Part shown: one piece after another, positions 1-53,766 of the stretch
How positions within the stretch are numbered: position 1 is the first letter of the stretch
Layout of the letters: the number at the start of each line of letters is the position of its first letter
IMG/VR virus record: IMGVR_UViG_3300044922_000290
Coordinates: 1 to 64,000 of that record
Length of the DNA: 64,000 nt
Source: a virus
Direction: 5' to 3' (one strand)
Program-made: the position numbers and the translations under genes
Notes under the pieces: generated by a model
What the model was told of the DNA's origin: nothing
Seen by the model: only the letters and a program-made list of their open reading frames with translations
Databases searched by the model: none

Positions 1-2
1 AT

Positions 3-3000
3 ACTCCCACAGCTTTAGATGCTGTTAAAACTATACCAGAAGGTATACAACAAAAACCAGGTGAGAAAAATAAAGTTGGTAATAGATACTTAGTATTACT
101 TGAAAATGGTAATTGGGCTGTACTTGAGCATAAAGAATTAACTTTAGCTGAATTTGAAACCGTATTTAAAGAACTTCTTGACCTACAAAAAAGAATTAAA
201 GAAGGTGAAAAAGTAGATAATGATACTTTAAATGAAATAAACGATAAAGTACAACAAGCTTATTATGTAGCTCAGGGAGAGCCTACAAAAGATTACCTTG
301 TAGCAAGACTATCAACTAAAGGTACATTTACTATACGAAATATAAACTATACTACAGGTAAAGAAAGTGGCAAACCTATTAAATCTGGTATACAAAAAAT
401 AGAAACTGTATATAACACTCTGTCTAAAGAAGGTACTATAAAAGGTAATGAAGAATCATTACGTTTAAAAGTAGGATTTAAAAATTCAGGGTTAAAAGTA
501 AACTACAACAATGCTATACCTGAAGCAGCTCAACCAAAAGAAGCTGTAACTTCCGTAGAAGTAGAAGATAAAATAGCTGAATTAAGAGCTAAAGAAGAAG
601 TAGAAGTTAAAAAGATTATACCTAACATAGATGATTATAAAGTTGGTGGTGTAATTAATAAAGATAAGGTATTAGAGGGTATAGAAGAAAGGAAGAAAGC
701 AGAATTAAAAAAAGCTGAAAGTACTACTACAGAAATTGTAGAAGAAACTGAACCTAATGGAAAAAAAGTATTTTTAGGCACTCCTTCAAAAGATGGCTAC
801 TTTATAAATAAAAATGTTAAAACTAAGTTTGATGAAGAAGAAAATGTTTATGAATTTATACTAACAAGTGATACAACTGCTAAGTTTAAAGTACATTCTC
901 ATCCAGAAGCGGTTAAATCAGCCCTTAAGTTTCCTGATAAAACTATTGACACAGTAAGTACTTCACTAAATGGATTTACTCCATCAGCTAATGGTATAAG
1001 AACTGTAAAATATGGGGAAGCTGTATTAGAAGGAGATAAATGGGTAGTTAAAAATAAAGCAGAAATTGAATACACAGGAGGTAATACTAAACCTGCTCAA
1101 GCTACATCAGGAACTTCTGTAGAAGCTACAAAAGCTGTAGAAGCTAAATACAAAGCCCAAGCAGATGCTTACAATGAAATATATGATAGGTATGATAAGC
1201 TAATAACAGGAGCTGCTAAAGGTACTTCTACTGAAACTAAAGCTACTGTAACCATACCTATTTTAACGACAGTTAAAGTTGATTTAGCTTCTTTAAGTAT
1301 AGATGAACTTAATAATGTAGCTAAGCAGCTTAGACAAAAAGCAGTTGATGCAAGACAAGCAGAAAAAGAAGGTAAAACTGTATTAGGAGGAAGTGTTTCT
1401 GTAGAAAGTGACTATCAGGCAGTTAAAAAATATATTGCGGAACTAGCTGCTTTAGAAACTAAAACAGAAGAAATAATTTCTACAACTCCTGAACAACTTA
1501 AAAAAGATGTTGCAGCTCTTTTAAACAAAGCTTTACAAGAATTAAAAGAAGCTAATGCTACTGGAAAGAATTTTATTTTAGGATTTCATGGTGGTAGAAC
1601 ATTTGATAAAGCAGATAGAACTAAACAATATACAGGAGAATTTAGAGACCCTGAAGTTAAAAGGGTAGCAGAATCAGCAGGGGCTAGATATGAAGGAGAA
1701 ATGTTATTCTTCACTGAAGATCTATCAGAAGAAGGTAATAAATTTACTTATGAAACAGCAATTCGTAGTGCTACTGCGTATGCTATTAAATATGGAGATG
1801 ATGCTCCCTCAATTCAAGCTTACTTAATACCTTTAAATGAAACACAGTTTGCAAATAAAGGGTTAGGAGAAGTTGGTGTTACTTATGATGATATTGAAGC
1901 TGATAGAATTAGAAAAATAGGTAGTGTAGATTTTACAAGAAAAATAGTTACAAAAGATACTACAGAAGCTCCTGTTACTGAACAACCCACCAGTGTAAGA
2001 GAAAGACGTAAAAATAAAAGCAATGAAATAAATAATGATATAAATGCAGAAGGGCCTTTTAAAGTAAGTGAACTACCCGCTGAAACAAAAATTAAATTTG
2101 AAGAGGCTTTAGCATATTTACGAAGTATATTACCTTTTGAAGTAGGAGATATTGATGCTATTGCTGATAGATTAACTAACAATGGTATTACTTTTGGTGC
2201 ATTTATAGATAATGTAATATATCTTAATAAGGCTGCTGAAGCAGGCACAGAATACCACGAAGCATTTCATGGTGTAATGAGTTTATTTAGCACAGAAGAA
2301 AGAGCAAAGTACCTAGAAGTAGCTAAGAAAGAACATAAAATTACTGACAAGGCAAGGGCAGAATTTGTTTTACAACGTCCTGTATACCAAAACTTATCCA
2401 AAGAAGCCTTAGATAAAGTAATGCTAGAAGAATATCTAGCTGATAAGTTTATGGCTTGGAAACAAGGTAAAAAAGAGCCTAATGGTTTTTTTGCCAAAAT
2501 GTTTGATAAAATCAAGAAATTTTTTGATGGTATAAAAGATTACTTTGGAGGTAACCTTGATTCTTTATTCCATAGAATAGATAGCGGTAAATACAAACAT
2601 AGAACTATAGGTGGAAACAAATTACCTATGTTTATGGCTTTGCCTTATAATACTGAAAAAATAAAAGGTACTGACGAAAAGATTATAAAAAAATTAAACA
2701 GTACAGAAGAGTCTGATTTAATTAATACTATAAGAGTTGAAGTAGGCGAACTTATTACAGAAAGTCTGGCTAGTAAAGATGTTTACACAATTAAACAAGC
2801 TTTTGATAAAGTACTTGAGATGCGTGATAATCTTTATTTAGATAAAGCTGATGAGTTATCTGAAGAAGAAGGTGATGAGTATTATCAAAAAAATTCAGGC
2901 TTATTTAAAATAACTGGTGTTAAAGAAGCTGTATTTGAAAAAGTAAAATCACAAATACAATTCTTACTTTCTGTAGATGAAGAAATTGCTGAACGTATTT

Positions 3001-6000
3001 TAAGTAAAGAAGAAGAAGAGGATTTAAGAAACTATGAAGCATCTGCTTTACAGAATACAGGTATAAGCAGTATGACACAGTATGTAAGAATACTTATTGC
3101 TACTGCACACATAAATGCAATAGATAAATATGGTGTGCCTTATAAGAAAGGTATTAATCCTTCTACTATATACAATAGCATTAGCAGGACACTACTAAAT
3201 ACAGCGCCTGAAAACTTTATGAGAAAGCTTGAAATTTTCTCAGAATACAATCCTGAAGTAAAAATATTTACTGATTACTTAAAAGATAAATTAAACTGGA
3301 ATAATGAAACTAACAATCCAGGATTAAATAATGATGGAGAATTAAAAAATGAACATATATGGAATGCCTTTAAAAAAGCCTTTCATAAATTTAAGGTAGA
3401 GTCTATGATGACTAGGTTATCTTCAAACGGTGAAACTAAAGTAAGTAGTAGTAATGCTAAAGACGTAGATACACAGCAAATAGAAAGATGGCAAATAGGT
3501 TATAGAAACTTTATAGAAAAGAACTTTACTAAATTAAATATTGCAGATTTTATTTACTTTAATGCAACTTCTCCAATTACTGATGAACAACTTGAAGAGG
3601 AATCAAAAAAAGCAAAAGCAACATTAGATAGTATAGGTATAAAACTATCTCCTTTATATTTACAATACTCTTTACTTGTAACAAAGAAAGAACGTACTGA
3701 TAAACAACAGGAGCTAATGGATTTGTATGAAAACTTCTACGGATTAAATGGAAGTGATGGTAAGTTTTTAAAAGAGCTTATAACAGATTTTATAAATACA
3801 GGACTTAATCCTTTTACCAAAGGAGATGAAGGTATGATGGCTAGGTTAAAAGCTCTAGCTATGGAAAATGCTTCATTTGATGAAACAGCAGGTAGCTCTA
3901 CTTTTCAAGCTGCTGATGGAGAACTTAGGGGAGATACTTCTTTAGGTTCATTCTTCTTAAAAAGAGTAGCACAACTACAAAAACCTGAAGCAAGGGCAGA
4001 AGATTTAGAAGAATTTACCAGATTCTACGCTAATCAAGAAGATGAATGGATGATTCCACTACATCATTTAGCTACTTTAGATAATCCTTTATATGAGCAT
4101 GCTGAAACATTTGATAAAAAGTTTGTATTTACAAACATTGATGGTATAAGAGCAACAGAATATGATGAGCAGGGCAATGAGATAAATAAACAAGAAGGTA
4201 CTGTATTTAAAAATATGGTTCCTTTGGAAAAACTACTTACTTTCATGTCTTTGTATTCTACTACAAAAGTAAAAACTACAAAAGAAGGAAAGAAAATAAA
4301 CTATGCCTACTATTACCCCCAAGTAATAGAAGCTGCAAGTACAGGTTATGCAATATTACTTCCTGTAAAACCTTATTATGATAAAGGATATAAACCTGCA
4401 TTTTACCAAGCATTACTAAGTTTTGTAAAGAATGAGCATGCACGTATTAAGTATGTACAAGAAAATAAAGATTTGCCTTCAATAAGAAACTTTAATGTTG
4501 GAGAAAAGAACGGATTAAAATTCTTTGAAAACTCTTGGATTTCACCTGAATTATCTGAAAAGCTAATAGCTTTAAATTCTGTAGATGAAATGTCTGTAGA
4601 GTTAAAGAAAGAGTTAAAAGATAACATTGATCAATTTGTACAACAAGACTACTTACTTACTGTAGATACATTAGTAAGAGAAGGAGCAATAATTGAAGTA
4701 GAAGGAGAATTTTACACAAGACTATTGCCAGAAGCTTTTAGAACTGATAAAAAAATAACAAAAGACGAAAAGACCTATCAAAAAGTAAATACAGAAAAGA
4801 TAAGGTCAATGCAGGCTAACTACCTCATTAATGGGCAAGCTTTTAATACTTTATTGCATGGAGACTTGGCTTACAAAATTAAAAGTCCTGAAGACCATGT
4901 AAAAAGGTTAAAAGGGGCACATGGAGCTTTAACTTCTTTATACGGAAGGCAAATAAAATTTAAAGTTATTCCTGACATAAAAAAAGATAAAAGAAAAATA
5001 GTAGTTGATGGGTTACCTAAATTTGTAGAAGTTACAGAAGCAGAAAAAGCAGAAGCAAGAGAAAAAATTATAGCAGGCAACCCTAATTTATCTGAAAAAG
5101 AGATAGTAAAGAAAATAAAAGAAAAACTTGAACTTGATGAACATAACCTTGCAGATGCACAGGCGTATACTACTTTAGACTTTCAAATTGCTCGTTTAAA
5201 AGAATTAGGTAAAACTTCACCTGCAATAGTTAAGATACTTGAAAAAGTAAGGAATGGTGTAGAAATTACAAGGAAAGAGCTTGAATTACTAGAAGGAGCT
5301 GACTCTTTACTTAATCCTAAAAAAGACTTAGCTTATGCACTTAACGCTAATTTAAAGATGTCTGTCCTTACACTAACTAGAGAACTTGTTTCATACAAAT
5401 CTAAAGGAGAGTGGCTTGCTATACCAGGGCGTGAAAAAGAGCATAAGATACTAAATGATATGGTAAAGAATACCATAGATTTAGTAGCCCATGAATCTGC
5501 AAGTAAAGGCACTACAATCATAGATGAAGTAAGAACTTTAAATGGGGAATACTATGGTGAGCAAGTATTAACTAAAGGAGTTAAACAGAAAATAACTGAT
5601 GGTACACAACAGCTAGCTTTAATTTGGTCAGAATTACCACAAGAACTTGAAAGCCTTGTAGAAAAACTAGACGAGGCTGAACAAAACAGGGTAATACAAT
5701 CAACAGAGTTTGCACTTTCTTTACTTAAAGAAAAAGATGAAACAACTCTTAAAAAAGTTTTACCTAACTGGTATAATAGTTTAGTATCTACAGGGGCTTC
5801 TCCACAATTATTAGAAATATTTAAACCTAATGCTGCTGGAGAACCTACATTAAATCCTAACATATCTATATCTGTAGCTAAATTTACTGCAATGTACTTA
5901 GCCCATTGGTCTAATCACGCTTTAAAACAAAAAGTTGCAGGCTCTAAATTTACTCTTGTAACTCCATTTAATGTAATGGTAGATAAAGATGATAATGTAG

Positions 6001-9000
6001 TAAGAGTAGATCAGTTTAAATCAGGTGCAAAATATACTAAACCAAGACCTCTGGCTTACAACAAAAGAGGTAAACTAAATGGTAGAGAAATAGTTTATTC
6101 AGAGTGTATTGTATCTGCTTATTACAAAGAATTGTATAATCTAAAAGAAGGTGATGAAATACCTGAAGATTTGGCTTATATGATGGGTTATCGTATTCCT
6201 ACAGAAGATAAAGCCTCTATGGGCGTACTTAAAGTAGTAGATTTCTTACCTGCAATATATGGTAATGCCATAATGATTCCTGAAGAATTGCAATACCTTT
6301 CAGGTGCTGACTTTGATATTGACTCTCTGTTTGTACAAAAATATGATATATACGAAAAAGATGGTAAGTTCTACAAATATGGTAGTGCCACAACTACTGA
6401 AGGTCAATTTGAAGAGTTTTTAAATTATGTAAAAGATGAGACTGATGTAGTTGATTACCAAAAAACTTTGTTAGAAGCTAACGAAGAATACCAAGATCTT
6501 TTAAAACAAGAAAAGGAACTACAAAAATTAATAGAAGCTAGGAATGAAAATATTGCAGAGTTAGACGAAAAACTAAGGGAGGCAAATGATTTTATACCTC
6601 TATCTTTATATGAAGAATCTGAAAAAGAGATTACAAGGTCTTGGGTACTCCCCGCAAAATCTAAAGAAATAGCTGAACAAAAAAGCTTAATAGAACAAGC
6701 AAAAGAAATACAACAAAGAAAGCAAGAAATAAAAGCTAATAAACTAGCAAGTGCCTTACGTTATTATGAATTACCTGCAAGTAAAACTGCTTGGGCAGCT
6801 GCTGTAAAAGAAGGTAAATATCCTGATGGTAAATTTAAAGCTGTTCTTAATAACGATTTGCTTACTTACAAATTAGAAATGTTAGGTAATGAAAAAGTAC
6901 AAAATACTTTGGCTTCTGAAAAAACATCTAACGAACCTTTATTAAAGCTACAAGAAACGCTAGCAATGCAATTTCCTGCTACATTTGATAGTGGTAAACA
7001 ATCATTAGGATTCTTTAGCTTTAATGATTTAGCAGTAGCTATGGCTAATAATGATGCAGGTTCTGATGGTATTGGCCCAGCAGCTGTATTTAATGTACTA
7101 TACCAATACTTAGCTAAACAAGGTGTAGGTATAAAAGATGCTCAAAGATTTGCAATAAAAGAAGGCTTTACTGTAAGAAAATATTATCAATTTAAAGGGT
7201 TTTCTTTTAAAAAGGACGGGGTATATAGAAATGCTGAAAACAAAAGGATTGTAAAAACCATTTCAGCAATCATTTCAGCAATGACTGATAATGCTAAAGA
7301 ACCTATTGCAGCAAAGTTAAATCTTAACTTAGAAACATTAGGGCCTGTACTTGTAATGTTAGGAACTGGTGTAAAACTAAGCACAGCTATAAAAATAGCA
7401 AACTCACCTAAAGTAAAACAACTATCGCAAGAAATACTACAAAGTAAGTCTAACTTTTCTGATGTATCTGCGTATAGTATTGTGCAGAATGCAAAAGCAG
7501 AAGTGGCTGATGTAGATTTTACACAAGAAACCACAGTATTAGACGAAGAGTTGCTAGACCTTTTATTAAAAGATGGAGAAGATATTGGAACAACATCTGA
7601 TATTGCATTAAAATTGTATTTAAATGCACGAGAAATATCAGAAGATATATTAAAAGGGCGTGATATACTTTCTCTACGCAAAGGTGTACCTGCTACTTTT
7701 GGTGAAGTAGATAAAATAATAACTTCTTTAAATAAACTAAGAGATGGAAAAACTCCTGCAACACTAGGATTAAGTAGATTACTAGACGTTAAACCTATTG
7801 AAGCCTTAACCAAAGCACTTGAAGATTTAAATAGTGTTGCACAACAGTTATTTACAATGCAACACCCATATATTAAAGAAACCTTTAATGTGGTAAAACA
7901 AGAAGTTAAAAGGTCAGAAAGTAAAGATGTATCAAATAAGATATATAGCGATTTAAGTTCTTTTATGAGTTTGTCAATTTTTAGAAAATACTTAGAAGAC
8001 TATGTTCCATCTAAAAAGAATGAAGTTAAATTTATAGAAACATTTAAAGAAGTATTTACAGAAGATGTTTTGTTTGAAAAAACATTACTAGAAGAAGTAG
8101 AAGATTTAAAAAAGAATGCTAAAAAGTATAATTTACAGAACAATAGGTTTTTAAAATATCTATCTACTGAATCAAGGTTAATAAAAAGAACTGTAGATAA
8201 AATAGAAGGTAATACACGCCAGTTAAGAGATTCGGATTACCAATTAGAACTTATTAATGGCTTTGATGATTTATACGCAAATCCTTTAACAAGAAAAACA
8301 GCTGTAAAACTATTTGCTTACATACTACTTAAAGATGGTGCTAGATATAGAAATGCTTCATTCCAATCTGAGATACCTTCTTACATGTTTAAGATATACT
8401 CAAACGCTTTAGATGCGTTTAGAAGTAATCCTAGTATGGTTGATGTAGTTAAACTTGGAAATGAATTTATAAAGTTATATAGTTTAAACCTGGATAACAG
8501 AAAAAGCCTGTATAAAATATCAAAAAGTAATCCTCTATTAGGTAAGGGTAAAAAAGATGGTTCATTCAAAGAAGAAGCAGGACAAGTAGCTATATCAAGG
8601 ATAGAAAATAGTGTGTTCCCAGAAATAGCTGCTGCTTATAACTTTGAATATAATTCAAAAGATGATGTATATAAACCTGTACCTTTCTTAATGGTTGGTA
8701 ATAATTTAAAGGTTATTTCAGAAATAAATGGAAAAGCTGTAACTAATTTATCTGATTTACGTGAAGGAGATAATTTTGTATATAAAGCTGCAAAAGATGT
8801 ATTTGGTATATACAGCCTTACCCCTTCAAAAAGAGGTATATCAGGTTATAGTTTCCCTTTAGAAAAAGCAATAGATTTATTTGGAGCTAAAGTTACAGAA
8901 GCAAAAGAAGAAGAAGAAGCTGAAAGTAGCGCAGGAATATCATTAGAAGAATTTTTACAGGCTAATAATTACTCTGATTTTAAAGAACCTGCTCCTGCTG

Positions 9001-9317
9001 AAAGAATAGTAACTGAGGCAGAATATAAGGAAATAAAAGCTGCTGAACCTGTTACTCCACCAACTGTAAAAGCTGCTCCTAAAGTTACCTCTGTATCAGA
9101 ACAGCTTAAAGAATGGGGTGTTACTTTTATAGAAGGAGTGGATCCATCTGGATTATTTCCTATGACAAAAGTAGAGTTTAATAAAAACACAGATCAGAGA
9201 GTAAAAGATATAGTAAATAGAAATTTAGATAGTGGTATTCTCTCACAAAGTGCTATCTTAGCAGATATTTTAAAAGCAGGAAAAACAGAAACACTTAAAA
9301 AAGCAATAGAATGTTAA
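3..9317 (+). CDS. Giant virion-associated DNA-dependent RNA polymerase / polyvalent ejection protein (5'-partial, >3100 aa)
   Basis: I translated 3-1700 by hand: the frame of the 1701 ORF is open with no stop, so the gene starts upstream of the window. Catalytic GADFDIDSLF (DFDID at 6309-6323) is preceded by YRIPTEDKASM, as in crAss-like two-barrel RNAPs. A zincin HEAFH motif lies at about 2256-2270. Confidence 0.92.
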   Translation, partial: TPTALDAVKTIPEGIQQKPGEKNKVGNRYLVLLENGNWAVLEHKELTLAEFETVFKELLDLQKRIKEGEKVDNDTLNEINDKVQQAYYVAQGEPTKDYLVARLSTKGTFTIRNINYTTGKESGKPIKSGIQKIETVYNTLSKEGTIKGNEESLRLKVGFKNSGLKVNYNNAIPEAAQPKEAVTSVEVEDKIAELRAKEEVEVKKIIPNIDDYKVGGVINKDKVLEGIEERKKAELKKAESTTTEIVEETEPNGKKVFLGTPSKDGYFINKNVKTKFDEEENVYEFILTSDTTAKFKVHSHPEAVKSALKFPDKTIDTVSTSLNGFTPSANGIRTVKYGEAVLEGDKWVVKNKAEIEYTGGNTKPAQATSGTSVEATKAVEAKYKAQADAYNEIYDRYDKLITGAAKGTSTETKATVTIPILTTVKVDLASLSIDELNNVAKQLRQKAVDARQAEKEGKTVLGGSVSVESDYQAVKKYIAELAALETKTEEIISTTPEQLKKDVAALLNKALQELKEANATGKNFILGFHGGRTFDKADRTKQYTGEFRDPEVKRVAESAGARYEGEMLFFTEDLSEEGNKFTYETAIRSATAYAIKYGDDAPSIQAYLIPLNETQFANKGLGEVGVTYDDIEADRIRKIGSVDFTRKIVTKDTTEAPVTEQPTSVRERRKNKSNEINNDINAEGPFKVSELPAETKIKFEEALAYLRSILPFEVGDIDAIADRLTNNGITFGAFIDNVIYLNKAAEAGTEYHEAFHGVMSLFSTEERAKYLEVAKKEHKITDKARAEFVLQRPVYQNLSKEALDKVMLEEYLADKFMAWKQGKKEPNGFFAKMFDKIKKFFDGIKDYFGGNLDSLFHRIDSGKYKHRTIGGNKLPMFMALPYNTEKIKGTDEKIIKKLNSTEESDLINTIRVEVGELITESLASKDVYTIKQAFDKVLEMRDNLYLDKADELSEEEGDEYYQKNSGLFKITGVKEAVFEKVKSQIQFLLSVDEEIAERILSKEEEEDLRNYEASALQNTGISSMTQYVRILIATAHINAIDKYGVPYKKGINPSTIYNSISRTLLNTAPENFMRKLEIFSEYNPEVKIFTDYLKDKLNWNNETNNPGLNNDGELKNEHIWNAFKKAFHKFKVESMMTRLSSNGETKVSSSNAKDVDTQQIERWQIGYRNFIEKNFTKLNIADFIYFNATSPITDEQLEEESKKAKATLDSIGIKLSPLYLQYSLLVTKKERTDKQQELMDLYENFYGLNGSDGKFLKELITDFINTGLNPFTKGDEGMMARLKALAMENASFDETAGSSTFQAADGELRGDTSLGSFFLKRVAQLQKPEARAEDLEEFTRFYANQEDEWMIPLHHLATLDNPLYEHAETFDKKFVFTNIDGIRATEYDEQGNEINKQEGTVFKNMVPLEKLLTFMSLYSTTKVKTTKEGKKINYAYYYPQVIEAASTGYAILLPVKPYYDKGYKPAFYQALLSFVKNEHARIKYVQENKDLPSIRNFNVGEKNGLKFFENSWISPELSEKLIALNSVDEMSVELKKELKDNIDQFVQQDYLLTVDTLVREGAIIEVEGEFYTRLLPEAFRTDKKITKDEKTYQKVNTEKIRSMQANYLINGQAFNTLLHGDLAYKIKSPEDHVKRLKGAHGALTSLYGRQIKFKVIPDIKKDKRKIVVDGLPKFVEVTEAEKAEAREKIIAGNPNLSEKEIVKKIKEKLELDEHNLADAQAYTTLDFQIARLKELGKTSPAIVKILEKVRNGVEITRKELELLEGADSLLNPKKDLAYALNANLKMSVLTLTRELVSYKSKGEWLAIPGREKEHKILNDMVKNTIDLVAHESASKGTTIIDEVRTLNGEYYGEQVLTKGVKQKITDGTQQLALIWSELPQELESLVEKLDEAEQNRVIQSTEFALSLLKEKDETTLKKVLPNWYNSLVSTGASPQLLEIFKPNAAGEPTLNPNISISVAKFTAMYLAHWSNHALKQKVAGSKFTLVTPFNVMVDKDDNVVRVDQFKSGAKYTKPRPLAYNKRGKLNGREIVYSECIVSAYYKELYNLKEGDEIPEDLAYMMGYRIPTEDKASMGVLKVVDFLPAIYGNAIMIPEELQYLSGADFDIDSLFVQKYDIYEKDGKFYKYGSATTTEGQFEEFLNYVKDETDVVDYQKTLLEANEEYQDLLKQEKELQKLIEARNENIAELDEKLREANDFIPLSLYEESEKEITRSWVLPAKSKEIAEQKSLIEQAKEIQQRKQEIKANKLASALRYYELPASKTAWAAAVKEGKYPDGKFKAVLNNDLLTYKLEMLGNEKVQNTLASEKTSNEPLLKLQETLAMQFPATFDSGKQSLGFFSFNDLAVAMANNDAGSDGIGPAAVFNVLYQYLAKQGVGIKDAQRFAIKEGFTVRKYYQFKGFSFKKDGVYRNAENKRIVKTISAIISAMTDNAKEPIAAKLNLNLETLGPVLVMLGTGVKLSTAIKIANSPKVKQLSQEILQSKSNFSDVSAYSIVQNAKAEVADVDFTQETTVLDEELLDLLLKDGEDIGTTSDIALKLYLNAREISEDILKGRDILSLRKGVPATFGEVDKIITSLNKLRDGKTPATLGLSRLLDVKPIEALTKALEDLNSVAQQLFTMQHPYIKETFNVVKQEVKRSESKDVSNKIYSDLSSFMSLSIFRKYLEDYVPSKKNEVKFIETFKEVFTEDVLFEKTLLEEVEDLKKNAKKYNLQNNRFLKYLSTESRLIKRTVDKIEGNTRQLRDSDYQLELINGFDDLYANPLTRKTAVKLFAYILLKDGARYRNASFQSEIPSYMFKIYSNALDAFRSNPSMVDVVKLGNEFIKLYSLNLDNRKSLYKISKSNPLLGKGKKDGSFKEEAGQVAISRIENSVFPEIAAAYNFEYNSKDDVYKPVPFLMVGNNLKVISEINGKAVTNLSDLREGDNFVYKAAKDVFGIYSLTPSKRGISGYSFPLEKAIDLFGAKVTEAKEEEEAESSAGISLEEFLQANNYSDFKEPAPAERIVTEAEYKEIKAAEPVTPPTVKAAPKVTSVSEQLKEWGVTFIEGVDPSGLFPMTKVEFNKNTDQRVKDIVNRNLDSGILSQSAILADILKAGKTETLKKAIEC

Positions 9318-12300
9318 TTTGCCCTTTAAATTCAAAAATAAACGAACTAACAGTATCATTAGGTAACTACTATGACGCTATGCAAGTGTATCTACTGTCT
9401 GAAGGTAAATACCCCTCAAAAGAAGATGCTTTAAAAATACGTAACAGGTTTAAAAATACACCTTTTTATTCTAGTATATCTCAGTACGAAGATAACTTAA
9501 GTATATATAAAAACTTTACTACAAATGGTGTGGTTCAGGGGTTAGATAAAGCAGAATTAGCTGAAGTAGAAAAGATATTTAGAAACAGGGGGTTTAAAAT
9601 TACTGTACCTTTACATAAAGTACAAGGTTCAAGAAAACTAAGAGATAGAGAATCTTGGATGTTTATAGCAGATACTCCTATGTATCAAGCAGTAGAAGTA
9701 AGTAGAGAAGAGCTTTTACAAGATGAGGGCTTAATAGACCAAGACAAAGCTGAAGATAAAATAGCATTTAATAAGACTGAATATCAGTTTAAAGCTGTAA
9801 ACATAATAACAGCAAATCTTACTAAAATATCTTCTCTATTTAAAAACTTAAAAGATACTGATGTATTTTGGAGTAAAATACAAAAAGACTTTCAGATACC
9901 TAAAGATCAAATAGAATTACTAAAACAATCAGAAGGAGCTACTATTGAAGAAAAACTAGCTTCTTTTGTAGCTAATTATAGTTATACAGTACAAACTGAA
10001 GTTACTAAAGAAAGAATATTTAAACGCCAAGCTTTTGACGGAGATGAAAGAGAATTTATAGATGATTATGGTAATAATTATATTGCTACTTCTTCTGCTA
10101 CCCATGAAGGATATGATTACTTTAAAAATGATGAAGAAATAACAGGAAATGATTTTCATGAAGCTTATGATAAACATATAGAGGAAAATAATGTAGAAAA
10201 TCAAAATACTGCAACTTATTCTAATCTAACTGTACCTGGAGGTACTAACTATACAGAGAATGAAATAAAAACTCCAGATATTACTCCTTCTATTAAAGGA
10301 CATGCTGAGTTTAGTTCTGATCAAGGTATAGGTTGGTTTAGAAGTGATGAACAAATCAGTAAAAAAGAAGATGTCTGGGAAGAAATAGATGATTGGGCAG
10401 GTAAAAGAAAAGAATACAAAGAAACTAAAAAATATGGCTCTAAAACCCGTAGAATACTAGAAGTACAATCTGATTTATTTCAGAAAGGTAGAGATAAAAA
10501 AGATTTAGTTACTTCTACTATAGTTTCTTCTAATGTTAGTCAAGGAATGGTCGGTAAAGCAGATATGCAAGAATATTTAGATGCTATGTTATATTCTTTA
10601 ACAGCTTATGAAGGATATTCTCAAAAAGATGCAGAAGATAAAGTAGAAGAAGAAAGAAAAAGATTATTAAGTCTAGTTCCTAGTAAAGAAAATAGTTCTG
10701 AAAATAAATTCCTACAACTTCTAAACAAAGATAATAACTGGGTAACATTTTTTGTTAAAAACATTATTCAAGATAGTGCTAAAAAAGGATATGAAAAAGT
10801 ATTATTTCCTTCTGGTAATACAGCAAGTAAGATTGAAAAACATGATACTTTAGAAGAATTTAAGGAACAGAAAGAAGATAGGATTAAAAATAGAGAAGAA
10901 TTTTTAACAGAATTAAAAAAAAGAGATAAACCTTGGGTAATATTAGATGATAGTAAACTATCTGATAAAGATAGAATATATTTTAATAGTGAAAGTGATG
11001 CCATTAAATACATTGAAGATAATGATAATCTAAACCTAAGATATACACTAAATGATCAAGCTTCTATATATAAAGAAATAGAAGATATAAATACTGAAAT
11101 AGCTCAACTTAAACAAGAACTTGAAAGAGTTAATGGCCCTGAAGGATTAGCAGCTTTAAAACCTATTTATAATTTTTATGAAAACACTATAGCAAATGTT
11201 TTAAAGAAACAAGGTTATAATGCTAAAGTTGTTACTGATGAATATGGTAACACATGGAATGAAGTTACTGTAGAACCTAATAGAGATTTAAAACCTATTG
11301 CATTTAATAAAACTACTTCTGTAGTAGATAAGGAAGCTAAAACTGCCGTAGTAAAGATGTTAGATAAGCTATCTAAAAGATTTGGAGTTAGCTACGAAAT
11401 AATAAATGCTAAGAAAGCTAAGAGTTTATATAACAATTATAATGGTGAAAAAGCTTTCTACTATAAAGGTAAAGTATACATATTAGAAGATGGAATTACT
11501 CTAGAGAATGCTTTACACGAGTTTTCTCACCCTTTCATAAGAGCTATAGCTCAAAAGAATGTAGAGCTTTTTACTAACATAGTAGAAGAAATACTTTCTA
11601 CACCTGAAGGTAAGGCTATATATAATCAAGTAAAAGAGTTATACCCTGAACATGTAGTTGATGGTGAATTAAATTATGAAGGATTTGAAGAAGTAGCTGT
11701 ACGTGCTTTAACAGCAGAAGCTCAAAAGCAGTATACTAATCCTTCTTTTGAAAGTGCTGTACAAAGGCTTATAAAAGCTATAAAGAACCTTCTTAGAGGA
11801 TTATTCTCTACTAATGCTGTAGATAGTATTGATAGTAATACTTCTTTAAAAGAACTTGCTGAAATATTGTTAGGTGATGATGCATATAGTTTAGATTTAA
11901 AAGATGGTACTTTTGCAGCAAATAAATCTGTTAAGTACGAAATATATAATGGATTACCATTTACCGAAGAATCTTTAGCAAGAATGAGTGATGGTGAAAA
12001 AAGGATTACAGTAAGAACCAAAGTACATCCAACAGGTATATATGAATATAATGGGCAGAGATTCAAAATACTTAATCTTGGTCAAAAAAATATAAAAGAC
12101 TTTAAAACTCCTGAAAGGGTAAAAAGAAAATTCAGAGAAGAGTATAAAAAAGGTATGTTCAAACATATAGATAGCTTTTTTGATGGAAAAACTAATTTAT
12201 TTGTGTATCAAATAGAAAAGATTGATAATTCTATAGTAAATGAATATGTAAAAGAAGAGCCTCTTGATGAAGATCTTGTATTTACTAATGCTACTACCAA

Positions 12301-15300
12301 TGCTACATTAAAGGCCATAAAAGATTGGTTAGTTTCTAAAAAAGATTCTGCGTTAAAACATAAATCTGATACAGGGCTATTATCTAAGATTAAAAAAGTA
12401 GAAGATATAGAAGAACAGCTTAAGCAATTAAGTTTAGCTGAAATTATGGGCAGTATAGTTGATGATGTATACAGTGCTCTTGCAGACCCCAATAACCCAA
12501 ATAGTTACTTATTGCAATTTAAAAAAATTATACAAGAAGTAGCTTCAGCAGAAACAAGAGAAGATGCTGAAAAGGTAGTAGAAAAAATAGGAGCTTACAA
12601 AGAGTATGTAGCAGGTTTAAAAATTATTGATGATTTACTTAACTACCAATTAGCAGAAGAAAAGCCGAATGAGGGCTCTACCCTTGCTAAACTAAATGGT
12701 ATAAAAAATGCTTTATTTGAACTTGATAAAAAAATAAAAGATACAGCTCCTTACGTATTAGCTATAGCTAACAAAGGTTCTATAAATGAAGAACTTCGTA
12801 AGAATATAGAAGCTTACTGGCCTATGATAAAAAAACTAGAGTCAGATATAAGAGAATTAGAAGCTAAAGGAGAGAAAATAAAAGCAGCTGCCCTTAAGTC
12901 TAAAAAAGAAGATTTAGAAAGAAAGTTAGGGTTTCCTTTGTTAGGAGATTTAACACAAATCTATTTAGAAGGAGGTAATGATATAAATTTCTTTGAAAGA
13001 ATGGTTAAAACTGTTGCTAATACCGCAGATGCTGCAATAGGATTGTTCTATAAAAGGTATAAAGAAGAAATAGATAAGGGAAGAAAAAAGATAAATGAAC
13101 TTACTAAATCTACTTACTACAAATACAAACAGTTTACAGAAGGTAAATCAATAGATAACTTTGAGCAGCTGTATGAAAAAATGACTGAAGATGTAGATGT
13201 TCTTAGATATAATGAAGATAGTGGGCAATATGAAACATTTACAGAAAAATGGTTTATATCAGATTTTGACCAAAATGCATATAATCTTAAAAGAAAACAA
13301 GCTTATGATTTAGCAGCGCTAGAAGAAAAGAAAGCCAGAGATGCAGCTGCAAATGGTGATAATGAGGGTTATAAAGAAGGAATGGCTACTGCAAGAAGAA
13401 TAAGGGCTAACTTTAGAAGAAATAATACTATAGCACAAGATAAGTTAGAAGGCAGGGATAAAGTAATAGAAATACTTCTACAAAAAGAAAAATTATTTGA
13501 TAACAGTGCGGAAGGTAAAAGTCAGTTTTATGCTTGGGTAACTAACCATCTTTACAACGAAGAGTTATATATAGAGTATGTTTCACAAGAAGATCCTACT
13601 AAAATTGCAGAGTATGGTAAAAGATTGCTAGATAGTTATGTACAAAATAAAGGTACTAAAGTATCAGGAATGTTTTTAGTACCTGATAAAACTAAATTTC
13701 CCAATGCTAAATATAATGCATTATCTATTGAAGATAGAAAATACTACGACCATCTTTTAAGTGTATACAAAGAATCTCAAAAGCTACTACCAGAATTTGA
13801 AAGACCTGGGCTAAGAGTACCTTCTGTAGAAAAAGACATTAAAGATATTCTTATTGAACAAAAAGATGTAAAAAAATCAGCAATTGCTACATGGGAAAGA
13901 AACTTTAAAAATCACGTAGAAGATGCTTCTAAAGGTATTGTCTACAAAGGGCAAACCAAAAGAATACCTATTTATTTTAACCAAAGTATGGCCGCTGATA
14001 CAGTAAGTATGAATCTTACCGATACAGTAATGAAATTTGCTGAAATGGCTGAACAGTTTAAAATAAACTCTTCTTTAGAATCTTTAGCTCTTCTTACCAA
14101 AGAAACAATAGCTGAAAGAACTGTAGAAAAAAAGACTTCAACAGGAAAGAAAATATTAAGTGCCTTACATAAAAAAATGTATGGAGAAGAAGTTGTGGAA
14201 CCAATAAAATTTGCAGAAACAGAAGCATATAAAATGTTTGAAAGCTGGTTAGACAGTAACTTCTACAATGAACGTAGGTATGCTGCAAATTTAGGTACAG
14301 TACGTTTAGATAAAGTAGTTGATACAATGATGGCTGCAAATGCTTTATCTGTACTAGGAGCTGATGGACTTAAAGCACTTTCTAACAGACTTACAGCAGG
14401 TGTAAATATTGCAATAGAATCTTTGGGTAATAAATATTTTACAACAAAAACACTTGCAAAAGGTAAAGCTAAAGTAGGTCAATTAATGTATGCAACAGCT
14501 GGTGAAGAAAATCTTTTAATGGATACATTGAGGGGTGTAAAAACAACACACTTTGGACAAATGCTAGACATATTCCAAGCTATACAAGGTGAGAATGATG
14601 CAGTAGAAGAAATAGGAGGTTCTATGGTAAAAAGACATGCTTCTACATCATTACTAATGGGAGGTTTATCAGCAGGTGAGTTTATAGCGCAAGCTAATAT
14701 GTTTGCAGCAATAGCCTATGATATTAAAATAAAAACAAAATCTGGTGAAGAAATAAGCCTATTAGATGCCTATGTAAAAGAAGCTGATGGTATAGTAAGA
14801 CTTCGTAAAGATGTAGAATTTACTGAAGAAGATGAACAACTTTTACGTAATAAAATTAACGCCATAAACAAAGAATTACATGGGGTCTACAATAAAATAG
14901 ATGAAGTAGAAGCCAAGAAAAATTGGGTTGGCAGAGCCTTAATACAATTTCGTAACTTCTTAGTACCAAATGTAGAAAGAAGATTTCAAGAGCTGCATGT
15001 AAACTTTGAAATGAATGATATAGTAGAAGGGTATTATAAAACTCTGTACAGAAAAATGGTTACAGAAAGAAACTTTAAAATTTGGCAAATATATAATGAT
15101 CCTTCTCTAACTGAAAATGAACGTAATAACCTTAAAAAGGCAGTAGTAGAATTAACCTCTTACTTTGTACTTGCAGCAATTGTTTCAATACTTGCAGGTA
15201 TGGGAGATGATGATGATGAACTAAAAGATAACTATGCATACAATGTAGCTCTTTATTCCGCCTTAAGACTAAAAGGTGAGATAGGATTCTTTATACCAGG

Positions 15301-15550
15301 TATTAATTTAAAAGAGGGTTATAGAATTATTAAATCTCCTTCTGCTATTAATACTCTGCTAGAAAGAAGTGTTAAGTTTGGGGGCCAACTAGTTACTGAT
15401 CCATTTGCAGAGTATGAAAGAAAATCAGGGCCTTGGGAAAAAGGAGATTCTAAACTGAAAGCTAGATTTTTAAAACTATTCTTTGGGTATAACGGATCAA
15501 ACCTAGATCCAAGTATTGCAGTAGAAAATTTTAAAGGACTTTCAAACTAG
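9311..15550 (+). CDS. Giant virion/ejection protein with polyvalent domains
   Basis: 2079 aa, directly after the RNAP gene. Has an RILEVQSD-type polyvalent domain, a zincin LHEFSHP...EEVAV motif, an ASCH-like GEKRITVR segment and a C-terminal hydrophobic helix followed by DDDDE. Confidence 0.75.
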   Translation: MLICPLNSKINELTVSLGNYYDAMQVYLLSEGKYPSKEDALKIRNRFKNTPFYSSISQYEDNLSIYKNFTTNGVVQGLDKAELAEVEKIFRNRGFKITVPLHKVQGSRKLRDRESWMFIADTPMYQAVEVSREELLQDEGLIDQDKAEDKIAFNKTEYQFKAVNIITANLTKISSLFKNLKDTDVFWSKIQKDFQIPKDQIELLKQSEGATIEEKLASFVANYSYTVQTEVTKERIFKRQAFDGDEREFIDDYGNNYIATSSATHEGYDYFKNDEEITGNDFHEAYDKHIEENNVENQNTATYSNLTVPGGTNYTENEIKTPDITPSIKGHAEFSSDQGIGWFRSDEQISKKEDVWEEIDDWAGKRKEYKETKKYGSKTRRILEVQSDLFQKGRDKKDLVTSTIVSSNVSQGMVGKADMQEYLDAMLYSLTAYEGYSQKDAEDKVEEERKRLLSLVPSKENSSENKFLQLLNKDNNWVTFFVKNIIQDSAKKGYEKVLFPSGNTASKIEKHDTLEEFKEQKEDRIKNREEFLTELKKRDKPWVILDDSKLSDKDRIYFNSESDAIKYIEDNDNLNLRYTLNDQASIYKEIEDINTEIAQLKQELERVNGPEGLAALKPIYNFYENTIANVLKKQGYNAKVVTDEYGNTWNEVTVEPNRDLKPIAFNKTTSVVDKEAKTAVVKMLDKLSKRFGVSYEIINAKKAKSLYNNYNGEKAFYYKGKVYILEDGITLENALHEFSHPFIRAIAQKNVELFTNIVEEILSTPEGKAIYNQVKELYPEHVVDGELNYEGFEEVAVRALTAEAQKQYTNPSFESAVQRLIKAIKNLLRGLFSTNAVDSIDSNTSLKELAEILLGDDAYSLDLKDGTFAANKSVKYEIYNGLPFTEESLARMSDGEKRITVRTKVHPTGIYEYNGQRFKILNLGQKNIKDFKTPERVKRKFREEYKKGMFKHIDSFFDGKTNLFVYQIEKIDNSIVNEYVKEEPLDEDLVFTNATTNATLKAIKDWLVSKKDSALKHKSDTGLLSKIKKVEDIEEQLKQLSLAEIMGSIVDDVYSALADPNNPNSYLLQFKKIIQEVASAETREDAEKVVEKIGAYKEYVAGLKIIDDLLNYQLAEEKPNEGSTLAKLNGIKNALFELDKKIKDTAPYVLAIANKGSINEELRKNIEAYWPMIKKLESDIRELEAKGEKIKAAALKSKKEDLERKLGFPLLGDLTQIYLEGGNDINFFERMVKTVANTADAAIGLFYKRYKEEIDKGRKKINELTKSTYYKYKQFTEGKSIDNFEQLYEKMTEDVDVLRYNEDSGQYETFTEKWFISDFDQNAYNLKRKQAYDLAALEEKKARDAAANGDNEGYKEGMATARRIRANFRRNNTIAQDKLEGRDKVIEILLQKEKLFDNSAEGKSQFYAWVTNHLYNEELYIEYVSQEDPTKIAEYGKRLLDSYVQNKGTKVSGMFLVPDKTKFPNAKYNALSIEDRKYYDHLLSVYKESQKLLPEFERPGLRVPSVEKDIKDILIEQKDVKKSAIATWERNFKNHVEDASKGIVYKGQTKRIPIYFNQSMAADTVSMNLTDTVMKFAEMAEQFKINSSLESLALLTKETIAERTVEKKTSTGKKILSALHKKMYGEEVVEPIKFAETEAYKMFESWLDSNFYNERRYAANLGTVRLDKVVDTMMAANALSVLGADGLKALSNRLTAGVNIAIESLGNKYFTTKTLAKGKAKVGQLMYATAGEENLLMDTLRGVKTTHFGQMLDIFQAIQGENDAVEEIGGSMVKRHASTSLLMGGLSAGEFIAQANMFAAIAYDIKIKTKSGEEISLLDAYVKEADGIVRLRKDVEFTEEDEQLLRNKINAINKELHGVYNKIDEVEAKKNWVGRALIQFRNFLVPNVERRFQELHVNFEMNDIVEGYYKTLYRKMVTERNFKIWQIYNDPSLTENERNNLKKAVVELTSYFVLAAIVSILAGMGDDDDELKDNYAYNVALYSALRLKGEIGFFIPGINLKEGYRIIKSPSAINTLLERSVKFGGQLVTDPFAEYERKSGPWEKGDSKLKARFLKLFFGYNGSNLDPSIAVENFKGLSN

Positions 15551-41272: not shown

Positions 41273-41461
41273 AATTCTTTTATAAAAAACTTCTATAGTA
41301 CATCTTATAGAAGTTATTGATAATTCCAGTTTCACATAAGGAATTATTAAACAGGTTAAAGAACTGTCAATATGCACCCTGTTTTAATGCTCAAAGATAA
41401 AACTGGGTTGGGTTAGTAAGAAATAAAATTCTTAGTGTTGCAGTTTTTCTTTGATTATTAG

Positions 41462-41535
41462 TCTCCCTGACAAGATTCTAACTTGTGACTTTCCCATTAG
41501 AAGTGGGATACTCTATACAGCTGAGTTACAGGGAG
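41462..41535 (-). tRNA. tRNA-Arg (UCU)
   Basis: Minus strand CTCCCTG TA ACTC AGCTGTATA GAGT A TCCCA CT-TCT-AA TGGGA AAGTC ACAAG TTAGAAT CTTGT CAGGGAG A. All four stems pair perfectly; no encoded CCA. Confidence 0.92.
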
Positions 41536-49863: not shown

Positions 49864-50214
49864 TTAATTTTCTAAGTGAGATATATGCTCTTTATACATC
49901 ATTTGATCATATACATCTGTTGAAGTACGAGTTTTTAAATAAATCAAGGCTTTATTTTTTAAGTTCTCTTTTTCATTAGATATATCTAAGTTCAAATGCT
50001 CTTTTAACTGTTTACTTGTTAGTAATCCCTGATATTTACCATTTCGGTAGATTTCAGCAGCTAGAAAAGGTTTTGATATAAAAGCAAATTGTTCTTCTCC
50101 ACTTAACCAGTCTTTCCAAATATGTTCTTGGTACGTATGAACTGGTAATAATAGACTTAAAACTATTTTAAGGTCTATATCATTTTTTGGTTGGATTGTT
50201 TCTGTAAAAGTCAT
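49864..50214 (-). CDS. Hypothetical early protein
   Basis: Probable start at MTFTET (50214) after an A-rich leader. Confidence 0.55.
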   Translation of the reverse strand: MTFTETIQPKNDIDLKIVLSLLLPVHTYQEHIWKDWLSGEEQFAFISKPFLAAEIYRNGKYQGLLTSKQLKEHLNLDISNEKENLKNKALIYLKTRTSTDVYDQMMYKEHISHLEN

Positions 50215-50298
50215 TGTTATGTTTTTTGAGTTTGAGCTACCATGCACTCCTTGTATTTATCATTGTTTATACTCTATGAAAGGAACATAAAAGAGTTA

Positions 50299-50409
50299 AT
50301 AATCCCTCTGCACTCAGTTGTAATACACGAGACTATCCGACCTGTCTCTCACGGTTTGATGTATTACAACTGCTCACCCTTGGGAAGTGAGTTATGGTGC
50401 ATTAATTAT
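50299..50409 (-). ncRNA. Twister ribozyme (type-P1, with long P5 insertion)
   Basis: P1 AUAAU/AUUAU; L1 UAA and GAGGG; P2 UGCA/UGCA; P4 CUCAC/GUGAG with loop UUCCCAAGG; T2 CCC:GGG; T1 CC:GG; P5 CAGUUGUAAUACA/UGUAUUACAACUG. Confidence 0.8.
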
Positions 50410-50574
50410 GAAGGTTATCTGAACACCTACAAACGCCAGTAGCTTACTGGATAGACACGAGGTTAAAGGAATCGTGACAATACTTTATTGCTATAATATT
50501 ATAAGATAAACAGGGTAAAATACTACAGTTTTCAGGATGTTGGAAAGGATAGTTGGTAATCCATTATAACAAAT

Positions 50575-51919: not shown

Positions 51920-53485
51920 ATGAGCAAAATAATAGAATTTCACACAAGATCCCTCCAGAAAGGTGCTAACATTTTAGCAAATGCAGTAAAAGGTACTCTT
52001 GGCCCACAAGGAAGGAATGTAATTCTTTCACGTCAATTCAATGCACCACACATTACTAAAGATGGTGTTAGTGTAGCTTCTTCAATAAAGCTTGAAGATC
52101 CAAATGAAAATCTTGGAGCACAACTTTTACAGGAGATAGCTAACAAAACACTAGAAGTCTCAGGAGATGGTACTACTACAAGTATTGTTTTAGCACAAAC
52201 CATTCTTAATGAAGGACTAAGACTAATAGCTGAAGGCACAAATCCTGTAAAACTAAAGAAAGGTATAGAGCTAGCAACAGTAGAAGCTATACAATCTATT
52301 AAATCACAATCACTACTATTACAATCAGATTCTATTCTTAATGTAGCTACTATATCAGCTAATAATGACTTTACTATAGGTAAACTAATAGCTGATGCTG
52401 TAAATCTAGTAGGAGAAGAAGGTTTAATTACAGTTGAAGAATCAAGGTCTACTGAAACATACATAGAAGTTACAGAAGGACTAAAGATAGATAAAGGGTA
52501 CATTTCACCTTACTTTGTTACTGATCCTAATAAGATGGTAGTAGAATACCAGAATGCACTTATCCTGATTACAGATGAGAAGATAACAGCTACTACTCAA
52601 ATACTTAAGTACTTAGAAGCTTGTGTAAAAGAACAAAGAGCTCTTATTATTATCTGTGAAGACTTATTAGATGAAGCTCTTTCTACTCTTGTAGTAAACA
52701 GAATGAAAGGTATCAAAGTAGCAGCTATCAAAGCTCCTGCACATGGTGACCACAAGAAAGAACTATTACAGGATATAGCTACAATAACTGGTGGTCTATA
52801 TATTACTCAAGATAAAGGATTATCACTAGAATCTTCTCAACTATCTTCTTTAGGACAATCAGATGTTAAAATCTTTAAAGACTCTACCACTCTTATTAAT
52901 GGTAAAGGCAAGAAAGAAGACATACTTATCAGAGTATCTCAAATTAAAGAACAAGCTAAACACGCTGAATTACAGTTTGACCAAGATAGGCTAACCAAGA
53001 GAGCACAGAAACTTTCAGGAGGAGCAGCTGTATTATATGTAGGAGCAACAACTGAAACAGAGTTAAAAGAAAAAGCTGATAGAATAGATGATGCACTTTG
53101 TGCTACAAAAGCTGCAATAGCTGAAGGTATAGTACCAGGAGGAGGAACAGCATTTATAAAAGCAATAGCTTCTATCTCTTCTTCAAAAGATAAAGACATT
53201 CAGTCAGGTATTGACTTAATAAAGAAAGCATTAGAAGCACCTCTTCGTCAAATACTTCAAAATGCAGGACTAGAAGAAGATACTATTATTTCTAAAGTAA
53301 AGAAAGGCAAACAGTTTAATGCCAAGTCAGAACAATATGAAGATCTATTAGTTTCAGGAGTAATAGACCCAACAAAAGTAGTAAGAGTAGCCTTGGAAAA
53401 CGCATCATCAGTATGTGCACTATTCCTAACTACTTCTTGTGTAGTAGCAGAAAAATATATAGAAACCCCAATGAACTTTAATTAA
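51920..53485 (+). CDS. groEL: Chaperonin GroEL
   Basis: TLGPQGRNV, ITKDGVSVA, GDGTTT, GIVPGGG and GVIDPTKV motifs. Confidence 0.97.
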   Translation: MSKIIEFHTRSLQKGANILANAVKGTLGPQGRNVILSRQFNAPHITKDGVSVASSIKLEDPNENLGAQLLQEIANKTLEVSGDGTTTSIVLAQTILNEGLRLIAEGTNPVKLKKGIELATVEAIQSIKSQSLLLQSDSILNVATISANNDFTIGKLIADAVNLVGEEGLITVEESRSTETYIEVTEGLKIDKGYISPYFVTDPNKMVVEYQNALILITDEKITATTQILKYLEACVKEQRALIIICEDLLDEALSTLVVNRMKGIKVAAIKAPAHGDHKKELLQDIATITGGLYITQDKGLSLESSQLSSLGQSDVKIFKDSTTLINGKGKKEDILIRVSQIKEQAKHAELQFDQDRLTKRAQKLSGGAAVLYVGATTETELKEKADRIDDALCATKAAIAEGIVPGGGTAFIKAIASISSSKDKDIQSGIDLIKKALEAPLRQILQNAGLEEDTIISKVKKGKQFNAKSEQYEDLLVSGVIDPTKVVRVALENASSVCALFLTTSCVVAEKYIETPMNFN

Positions 53486-53490
53486 TTAAT

Positions 53491-53766
53491 ATGAAAACAT
53501 CAAATGTAACACCAGTACCTCTTGGAGAAAGAGTTATAGTAGAACCAATAGTAGAAAAACAAGAATCAGAGTTATTCTTAGCTGAAACTAAACTACCGCC
53601 TGCAACACAAGGTATAATAAAAGCTGTATCAGAACAAGTAACTACTTTAAAAGTAGGAGATGTAGTACAGTTTAGTCCTAATACAGGAGTACCTTTACTT
53701 ATGGTAGATAATGCCTACCTATTAATGAGAGTAGGAGATATAATTTGTAAATTTGTTGAACTTTAA
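53491..53766 (+). CDS. groES: Co-chaperonin GroES
   Basis: PLGERVIVE...GIIKAV...LKVGDVVQF...YLLMRVGDII. Confidence 0.9.
   Translation: MKTSNVTPVPLGERVIVEPIVEKQESELFLAETKLPPATQGIIKAVSEQVTTLKVGDVVQFSPNTGVPLLMVDNAYLLMRVGDIICKFVEL

Follow-up and report, generated by a model that had tools for sequence, protein, structure and literature searches.

A probable twister-class ribozyme with a rewired second pseudoknot in uncultured crAss-like phages

The locus analysed here raises the question of whether a 111-base element, which lies on the minus strand (50409..50299) of an uncultured crAss-like phage, 5' of a small gene, encodes a self-cleaving RNA and, if so, of what class. Twisters are among the fastest natural ribozymes, and to our knowledge it has yet to be established what they do in bacteria and phages. 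The window, by which we mean the whole stretch of DNA that was analysed, is 64,000 nucleotides long (positions 1 to 64,000 of the IMG/VR record IMGVR_UViG_3300044922_000290). A sequence-only reading had proposed a type-P1 twister at this site, and the letters and layout of the minus strand are exactly those it gave, namely AUAAU-UAA-UGCA-CC-AUAA-CUCAC-UUCCCAAGG-GUGAG-(13-bp stem plus inner hairpin)-AG-UGCA-GAGGG-AUUAU. Our results make it likely that the element is a type-P1 twister-class self-cleaving ribozyme, a member of an uncatalogued sub-family of uncultured crAss-like phages, with a predicted cut at U50404|A50403. This bond, which the sequence-only reading had also chosen, would correspond to the position at which twisters cleave, 5' of the conserved A in L1 (PMC8501958, PMC5408937). 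The minimum free energy of the element is -36.1 kcal/mol (z = -3.7 vs shuffles). The copy in the window is intact at every conserved position; its P1 has 5 bp, the 13-bp stem of its P5 is perfect, and the P5 insert is located between the 3' strand of P4 and the 3' strand of P2, which is the P5 position of twisters. The parts of the element and of its surroundings are collected in Table 1.

Table 1. Parts of the candidate ribozyme and of its surroundings (positions in the window, except where a family locus is named)
Feature	Position	Strand	Remarks
92-aa ORF	51084-50806	-	first in minus-strand order before the element
Terminator-like hairpin	50782-50765	-	between the 92-aa ORF and the leader
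Conserved leader	50436..50488	-	AGUAUUGU, hairpin A, hairpin B
Hairpin A	50476-50472 / 50460-50456	-	CACGA/UCGUG, loop UUCCUUUAACC
Hairpin B	50450-50436	-	CCAGUA-AGC-UACUGG
P1 5' strand AUAAU	50405..50409	-	pairs with 50299-50303; from the letters
L1 5' strand U-AA	50402..50404	-	predicted scissile bond U50404|A50403; A50403 at the general-acid adenine position
P2 5' strand UGCA and C50397	50397..50401	-	C50397 as fifth pair, with G50313; covariation
C50396	50396	-	could form the sole remaining long-range (T2-like) pair, with L4 G50379
L2 5' junction AUAA, without P3	50392..50395	-	family variants AUAA, ACAA, AUU, AUC
P4	50373..50391	-	CUCAC 50391-50387 / GUGAG 50377-50373, around L4 UUCCCAAGG 50386-50378
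L4 motif UCCCAA	50385-50380	-	from the letters
L4 CCC, strand of pseudoknot T1	50382..50384	-	partners G50304-G50306; compensatory changes
P5 insert	50315..50372	-	perfect 13-bp stem 50372-50360 with 50327-50315, inner hairpin
A50314 and G50313 (AG)	50313..50314	-	A50314 unpaired, invariant; G50313 pairs with C50397
P2 3' strand UGCA	50309..50312	-	letters and covariation
L1 3' strand GAGGG	50304..50308	-	G50308 at the catalytic guanine position (G45 of Osa-1-4, PMC5408937); GGG as T1 partner
P1 3' strand AUUAU	50299..50303	-	from the letters
Downstream gene	49864..50214	-	116 aa from ATG at 50214, 85 nt past the element; no family match
Second terminator-like hairpin	49857-49815	-	20-pair stem
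tRNA-Arg (anticodon TCT)	41461-41535	-	no other Rfam family reaches the gathering threshold in the window
T1 first pair, changed copy	L009:7450		U-A
T1 second pair, changed copies	L045:618, L052:5125		A-U
T1 third pair, changed copy	L045:2533		A-U

We used a descriptor of the fold to estimate how often such an arrangement occurs by chance. The descriptor comprised a P1 of at least 4 bp, N-AA, a 4-bp P2, a dinucleotide able to pair with the two bases that follow UCCCAA, a P4 of at least 4 bp and GAGGG. It matched the 96,431-bp genome a single time and had no match when 40 Mb of first-order Markov sequence were searched, while relaxed versions gave 1 to 11 matches in the same 40 Mb; from these counts the strict chance expectation per genome is far below 1e-3. 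The catalogue searches were negative. The sequence-only reading had named a search with the Rfam twister models as a check of its assignment, and this search went against it: Rfam 15 gave no twister-family match at the gathering threshold over the whole window, the four twister models (RF03160, RF02684, RF02682 and RF02681) did not detect the element when a 411-nt stretch centred on this region was searched at E<=10, and RF03160 searched over the whole genome did not match it either. The family member at locus L090, which has a 10-nt P5, was likewise without a twister-family match in Rfam, even at E<=10, so a long insert alone does not explain the miss. A blastn search of the element against GenBank phages matched nothing, and neither did one with the 3 kb around it. 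An exact-pattern scan of 185,579 prokaryotic species genomes gave 0 matches, and hence no prophage copies at that stringency. In the early region (1-12,000) of phi14:2, a cultured crAss-like phage, we found no match to our family model and no Rfam family.

The viral metagenomes gave a different picture. An exact-pattern scan of IMG/VR, with only UAA, CC, UUCCCAAGG and GAGGG as fixed letters, matched at least 119 stretches; among the matches listed (119 stretches), about 15 are random, and the remainder comprise at least 98 unique copies with at least 94 unique cores. A covariance model (R1), built from 40 copies and including no pseudoknots, gave 98 matches in 100 loci, some of them second or third copies overlooked by the pattern scan. 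Whole phage records mostly hold one copy each. Multiple or tandem copies are seen at L045 (420-521, 618-769 and 2533-2605) and also at L001, L035, L115 and L137. Conservation in related genomes, which the sequence-only reading had looked to as a further check, is incomplete at this site, as four close relatives of the 116-aa downstream gene (82-93% aa identity) carry no element at this junction; the element is thus not essential for that gene.

Decayed or recombined remnants, in which the 3' half is retained and the 5' half is lost or L4 carries deletions, are found at L127, L128 and L129-L131, and they indicate that the element undergoes turnover. Such remnants, together with the absence from this junction in the four relatives, are what could be said for a chance resemblance or a decaying remnant that has no function in this genome. 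We give this reading hardly any credence: in the window's own genome R1 makes exactly one match, at 97.7 bits, to an intact copy that has kept its 5-bp P1 and perfect 13-bp P5, and with a chance expectation that the descriptor counts place below about 1e-4 per genome the reading is strongly disfavoured.

The comparison of copies draws its strength from paired changes. In the alignments fitted to the model, standard pairs make up 88-91% of cells, and of the 31-32 pairs 26 have changes on either side; none of 500 shuffles reached any of the observed measures, and partners slid out of register were paired in 28-49%. All five pairs of P4 covary, with 99% of cells paired. P2 changes on both sides at three of its five pairs (variants UGCA/UGCA, UGUA/UACA and UGUG/CACA), and P5, whose length ranges from 10 to about 140 nt across the family, covaries at 8-9 of 10 pairs above an invariant basal CA...UG. 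The inner pairs of P1 covary as well. Of the 98 copies, 41 have a P1 of at least three contiguous base pairs, whereas shuffling the partners gives about 12%, and in more than half of the family copies P1 is weak or absent. This short P1 agrees with reports that P1 is dispensable in twisters (PMC5408937, PMC11662667). In many loci (for example L011, L024, L037 and L122) a strong hairpin stands immediately 5' of P1; it is absent from the copy in the window. Some of these hairpins resemble intrinsic terminators, with the U-run supplying the 5' strand of P1, and they may represent the optional P0 stem of twisters.

All but one of the 98 copies keep the UAA of the L1 5' strand. The positions of the catalytic A (50403) and G (50308) are invariant across the family alignment, and GAGGG and the L4 motif UCCCAA are invariant except for compensated changes in T1. 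In published twisters the helix formed by the CCC of L4 and the GGG of L1 is T1, and T2 is the 2-bp helix between L2 and L4 (PMC5408937); a 2024 study names the same helices PK2 (T1) and PK1 (T2) (PMC11662667). The sequence-only reading had recognised the CCC:GGG pairing and had called it T2. The pairing holds and the name does not: T1 shows compensatory double changes at all three of its pairs (Table 1), with 98-100% of cells paired, in alignments fitted to a model that contains no pseudoknot. With the covarying stems and the conservation in the family, the type-P1 layout of UAA and GAGGG in L1 and UCCCAA in L4 that had been proposed is borne out. These patterns show that the RNA structure of the element is under selection and that it retains the twister active-site architecture, consisting of P1, L1, P2, P4 with UCCCAA in L4, and T1. 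Of all the evidence for the twister assignment, we consider that the CCC:GGG pseudoknot matters most.

The other pseudoknot differs from that of known twisters. The sequence-only reading had described a compensatory CC:GG helix, under the name T1, in place of the usual GC:GC; in the literature this helix is T2, and CC stays within the known consensus, since published descriptors write the L2 strand as 'NC' and so leave its first base free (PMC11662667). The CC and GG are able to pair, yet the first C covaries with the G that precedes the 3' strand of P2. The alignment columns concerned (column 15 for C50397 and column 171 for G50313) hold C-G in 46 and U-A in 9 distinct copies, with none unpaired or mixed, and all ten copies that have A at the G50313 position have U at the C50397 position. 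When mixed forms of this pair were sought in IMG/VR scans, no intact ones were found, only decayed remnants. This perfect covariation argues for a local pair, C50397-G50313, as the fifth of P2 (UGCAC/GUGCA); by covariation P2 thus has five pairs and not four, the outer pair of the CC:GG helix is without covariation support, and with C50397 engaged in P2 only C50396 is free to pair with a G of L4. Copies of the U-A subtype mostly occur as a second copy beside a C-G copy.

What stands of the proposed helix is therefore one possible C-G pair: C50396 and G50379 of L4 are invariant in all copies and compatible with pairing, which leaves at most one long-range pair. IMG/VR scans in which the GG of L4 or the CC of L2 was freed gave only random matches or decayed remnants, and from this T2 is constant except for C to U at the first position. 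The loop that T2 reaches is also altered. The innermost Watson-Crick pair of P4 varies freely (C-G, A-U, U-A, U.G), so the essentially invariant G-C pair that canonically closes L4 is absent. Its place on the G side is taken by U50386, which is invariant and with G50378 can form only a U.G pair. Both bases are invariant, and U50386.G50378 may close L4. The sequence-only reading had counted one extra U in this loop; the invariant U is there, but with a U.G closure none would be extra, and L4 would instead lack one nucleotide on the 3' side, as the loss of the outer T2 pair would predict. P5 occupies the place of the A-rich 3' strand of L2, and the A after P5 is invariant.

Several observations speak against a self-cleaving twister: the Rfam models miss the element, T2 has at most one invariant pair, the G-C pair of L4 is absent, P2 has five pairs, and P1 is weak or missing in more than half of the copies. 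The reduced T2, the lost L4 closing pair and the longer P2 touch features that are important in canonical twisters (PMC5408937, PMC11662667), where the 2-bp T2 is sensitive to disruption (PMC11662667), the G-C pair that closes L4 beside the U.A trans pair is 'essentially invariant', and the length of P2 is thought to be important (PMC5408937). The element could accordingly be a twister-derived fold that no longer cleaves and acts as a structured 5' leader, for example one that binds protein or stabilises RNA. We judge this rather unlikely. The catalytic and active-site nucleotides are invariant in more than 90 diverged copies, and T1 has been kept by compensatory change, a pattern that is expected of a preserved active site. 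Loss of P1 does not impair twisters (PMC11662667), which are also indifferent to P5 and variable in L2 (PMC11662667). The element moreover co-occurs with Hatchet ribozymes: two loci have an Rfam Hatchet match on the strand of the element and some 1.2 kb upstream of it, at L115:460-597 (+) with 81 bits and at L007:6387-6553 (+) with 79 bits. No Hatchet ribozyme was found in ten further loci, and no hatchet, hammerhead, pistol or twister-sister ribozyme in the window. Self-cleaving ribozyme classes are known to cluster, and twisters to be associated with phages (PMC6765202). Taking both sides together, the element is probably a real twister variant and probably active.

The genomic setting suggests where such a ribozyme might act. 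The phage is a distant crAss-like virus, with about 35% identity between its large terminase and those of Crassvirales, and it contains PHROG families for portal, major head protein, DNA polymerase and rIIA. The C-terminal third (about 600 aa) of a 2079-aa ORF at 9311-15547 (+) is about 25% identical, by tblastn, to the crAss 'putative RNA-polymerase subunit'; the PHROGs gave no match to this ORF or to the preceding ORF of more than 2500 aa. The phage thus encodes a homologue of the giant crAss-type RNAP; the view of the sequence-only reading that an injected RNAP probably makes this RNA is an inference. The non-structural arm, on the minus strand, diverges at about 51.1-51.3 kb from a plus-strand arm with GroEL/GroES, terminase, portal and capsid genes, and the element is found about 0.9 kb into the minus-strand arm. 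By eye, the structural arm opens with a GroEL-like ORF of 521 aa at 51920-53485 (+), followed by a GroES-like ORF of 91 aa at 53491-53766 (+). In ribozyme-carrying relatives the tRNA model has matches that span 111 nt (L014:11695-11805) and 158 nt (L029:10332-10489), which may be tRNA genes that carry inserts.

A place near the arm head, which the sequence-only reading had given for this copy, is found across the family. Copies are always intergenic and co-oriented with their neighbours, and most loci with sufficient flank have a divergent strand switch 0.6-4.3 kb upstream, so the position near the arm head is conserved while the exact junction is not. The downstream genes are diverse (53 clusters among 82). 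The downstream and upstream proteins together form more than 50 clusters, among which we found no informative Pfam or PHROG family and no specific partner gene. A scan for sigma-70-type promoters gave sites no commoner than in shuffles. A plus-strand ORF of 66 aa (50242..50442) overlaps the element; it had been dismissed earlier as spurious, and most likely it is, because it is not conserved across the family copies.

Upstream of the element the window carries a leader with two hairpins (Table 1), and terminator-like hairpins flank the unit of leader, ribozyme and 116-aa gene on both sides. The leader is common to 13 copies, and both of its stems covary (for example CUGGUA/UGCCAG in L008 and UUGCC/GGCAA in L038). 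In L001 the block corresponding to window 50488-50372 occurs at 93% identity at a different gene junction, placed after the 116-aa gene and followed by a second copy of the element. A leader that accompanies the ribozyme in this way and has moved with it as a single block in L001 could mean that an active ribozyme serves chiefly to make the 3' end of the leader, hairpins A and B (50488-50436) being freed as a small RNA with a cyclic phosphate and the trimming of the mRNA being secondary; in phi14:2, early intergenic RNAs exceed most mRNAs in abundance (bioRxiv 10.1101/2020.03.07.982082). This reading seems to us very unlikely. About 85 of 98 members have no such leader and show unrelated hairpins or a gene end upstream instead, and the start codons downstream are often only 27-100 nt away, which fits processing of the mRNA 5' end equally well.

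For the twister-class ribozyme that we favour, the following course of events can be proposed. By analogy with the class (PMC5408937, PMC8501958), the T1 pseudoknot CCC:GGG would build the active site and the minus-strand RNA would cut itself between U50404 and A50403. The leader fragment would then end in a 2',3'-cyclic phosphate, and the mRNA for the 116-aa protein would start with a 5'-OH and a compact fold, since it would keep almost the whole ribozyme. As the context suggests, cleavage would in this way separate the leader and its hairpins from the coding part, at a site close to where the non-structural arm begins. A more far-reaching version can be put forward only tentatively and is, on balance, doubtful. 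It holds that the family is a structurally distinct twister sub-class in which half of T2 has become local and L4 has been re-closed while cleavage is retained, that it is fixed at the (probably early) arm head of environmental crAss-like phages, and that it yields 5'-OH, ribozyme-capped mRNAs, possibly made by the virion RNAP, together with a small RNA from the leader hairpins. In phi14:2 the virion enzyme transcribes the early genes, and no motif common to early promoters was found (bioRxiv 10.1101/2020.03.07.982082).

The ribozyme class itself is known; what is new with respect to the catalogue is the fixed rewiring of T2 and L4, the obligatory P5, the size of the family and its restriction to phages. 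The family provides a natural experiment on how much rewiring a double-pseudoknot core tolerates, with more than 90 diverged sequences that have compensatory changes built in. Its consistent placement at the start of an arm in crAss-like phages makes the role of cleavage in phage transcripts testable. The family also shows that annotation based on Rfam overlooks probable ribozymes that form a large group in viral metagenomes.

Among known systems the closest is the type-P1 twister (Roth et al. 2014; RF03160; Oryza sativa Osa-1-4, PDB 4OJI), whose published form reads P1|UAA|P2(4)|GC|(P3)|P4|G-UCCCAA-GC|C-P4'|RUAAA|P2'|GAGGG|P1' (PMC8501958 Table 1). The element shares with it the order P1-L1-P2-L2-P4-L4, the U|AA opposite GAGGG, the UCCCAA of L4, the three-pair T1 beside the (here predicted) cleavage site and the positions of the catalytic A and G; like Osa-1-4, it is without P3. 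It differs in that P2 has, by covariation, five pairs and a local pair stands in for the outer T2 pair, in that L4 is flanked by U...G and not by the near-invariant G-C, in that the 3' strand of L2 (RUAAA) is replaced by P5 with its invariant CA...UG base followed by A, and in that it escapes RF03160 even at E<=10. A hairpin between the 3' strands of P4 and P2 is also found in P5-bearing twisters and in the type-P5 permutation (RF02684), P5 being present in about 1% of twisters (PMC6154101); in our family, by contrast, P5 is universal, its base is conserved in sequence, and the RNA opens at P1 and not at P5. The T-variant twisters of Schistosoma mansoni (PMC8501958) resemble the family in their P1, which is poorly paired or variable and draws its 5' strand from flanking sequence, and in the place of the ribozyme at the 5' end of the unit, from where it stays on the downstream RNA after cleavage, as is predicted here. 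They are, however, elements of eukaryotic retrotransposons with a canonical GC:GC T2 and a P3, whereas the present family belongs to phages and has a rewired T2. With the Hatchet, hammerhead, pistol and twister-sister ribozymes of phage-related regions (PMC6765202) the element shares its setting, intergenic and co-oriented among small phage genes, although the folds of those ribozymes are unrelated to its own.
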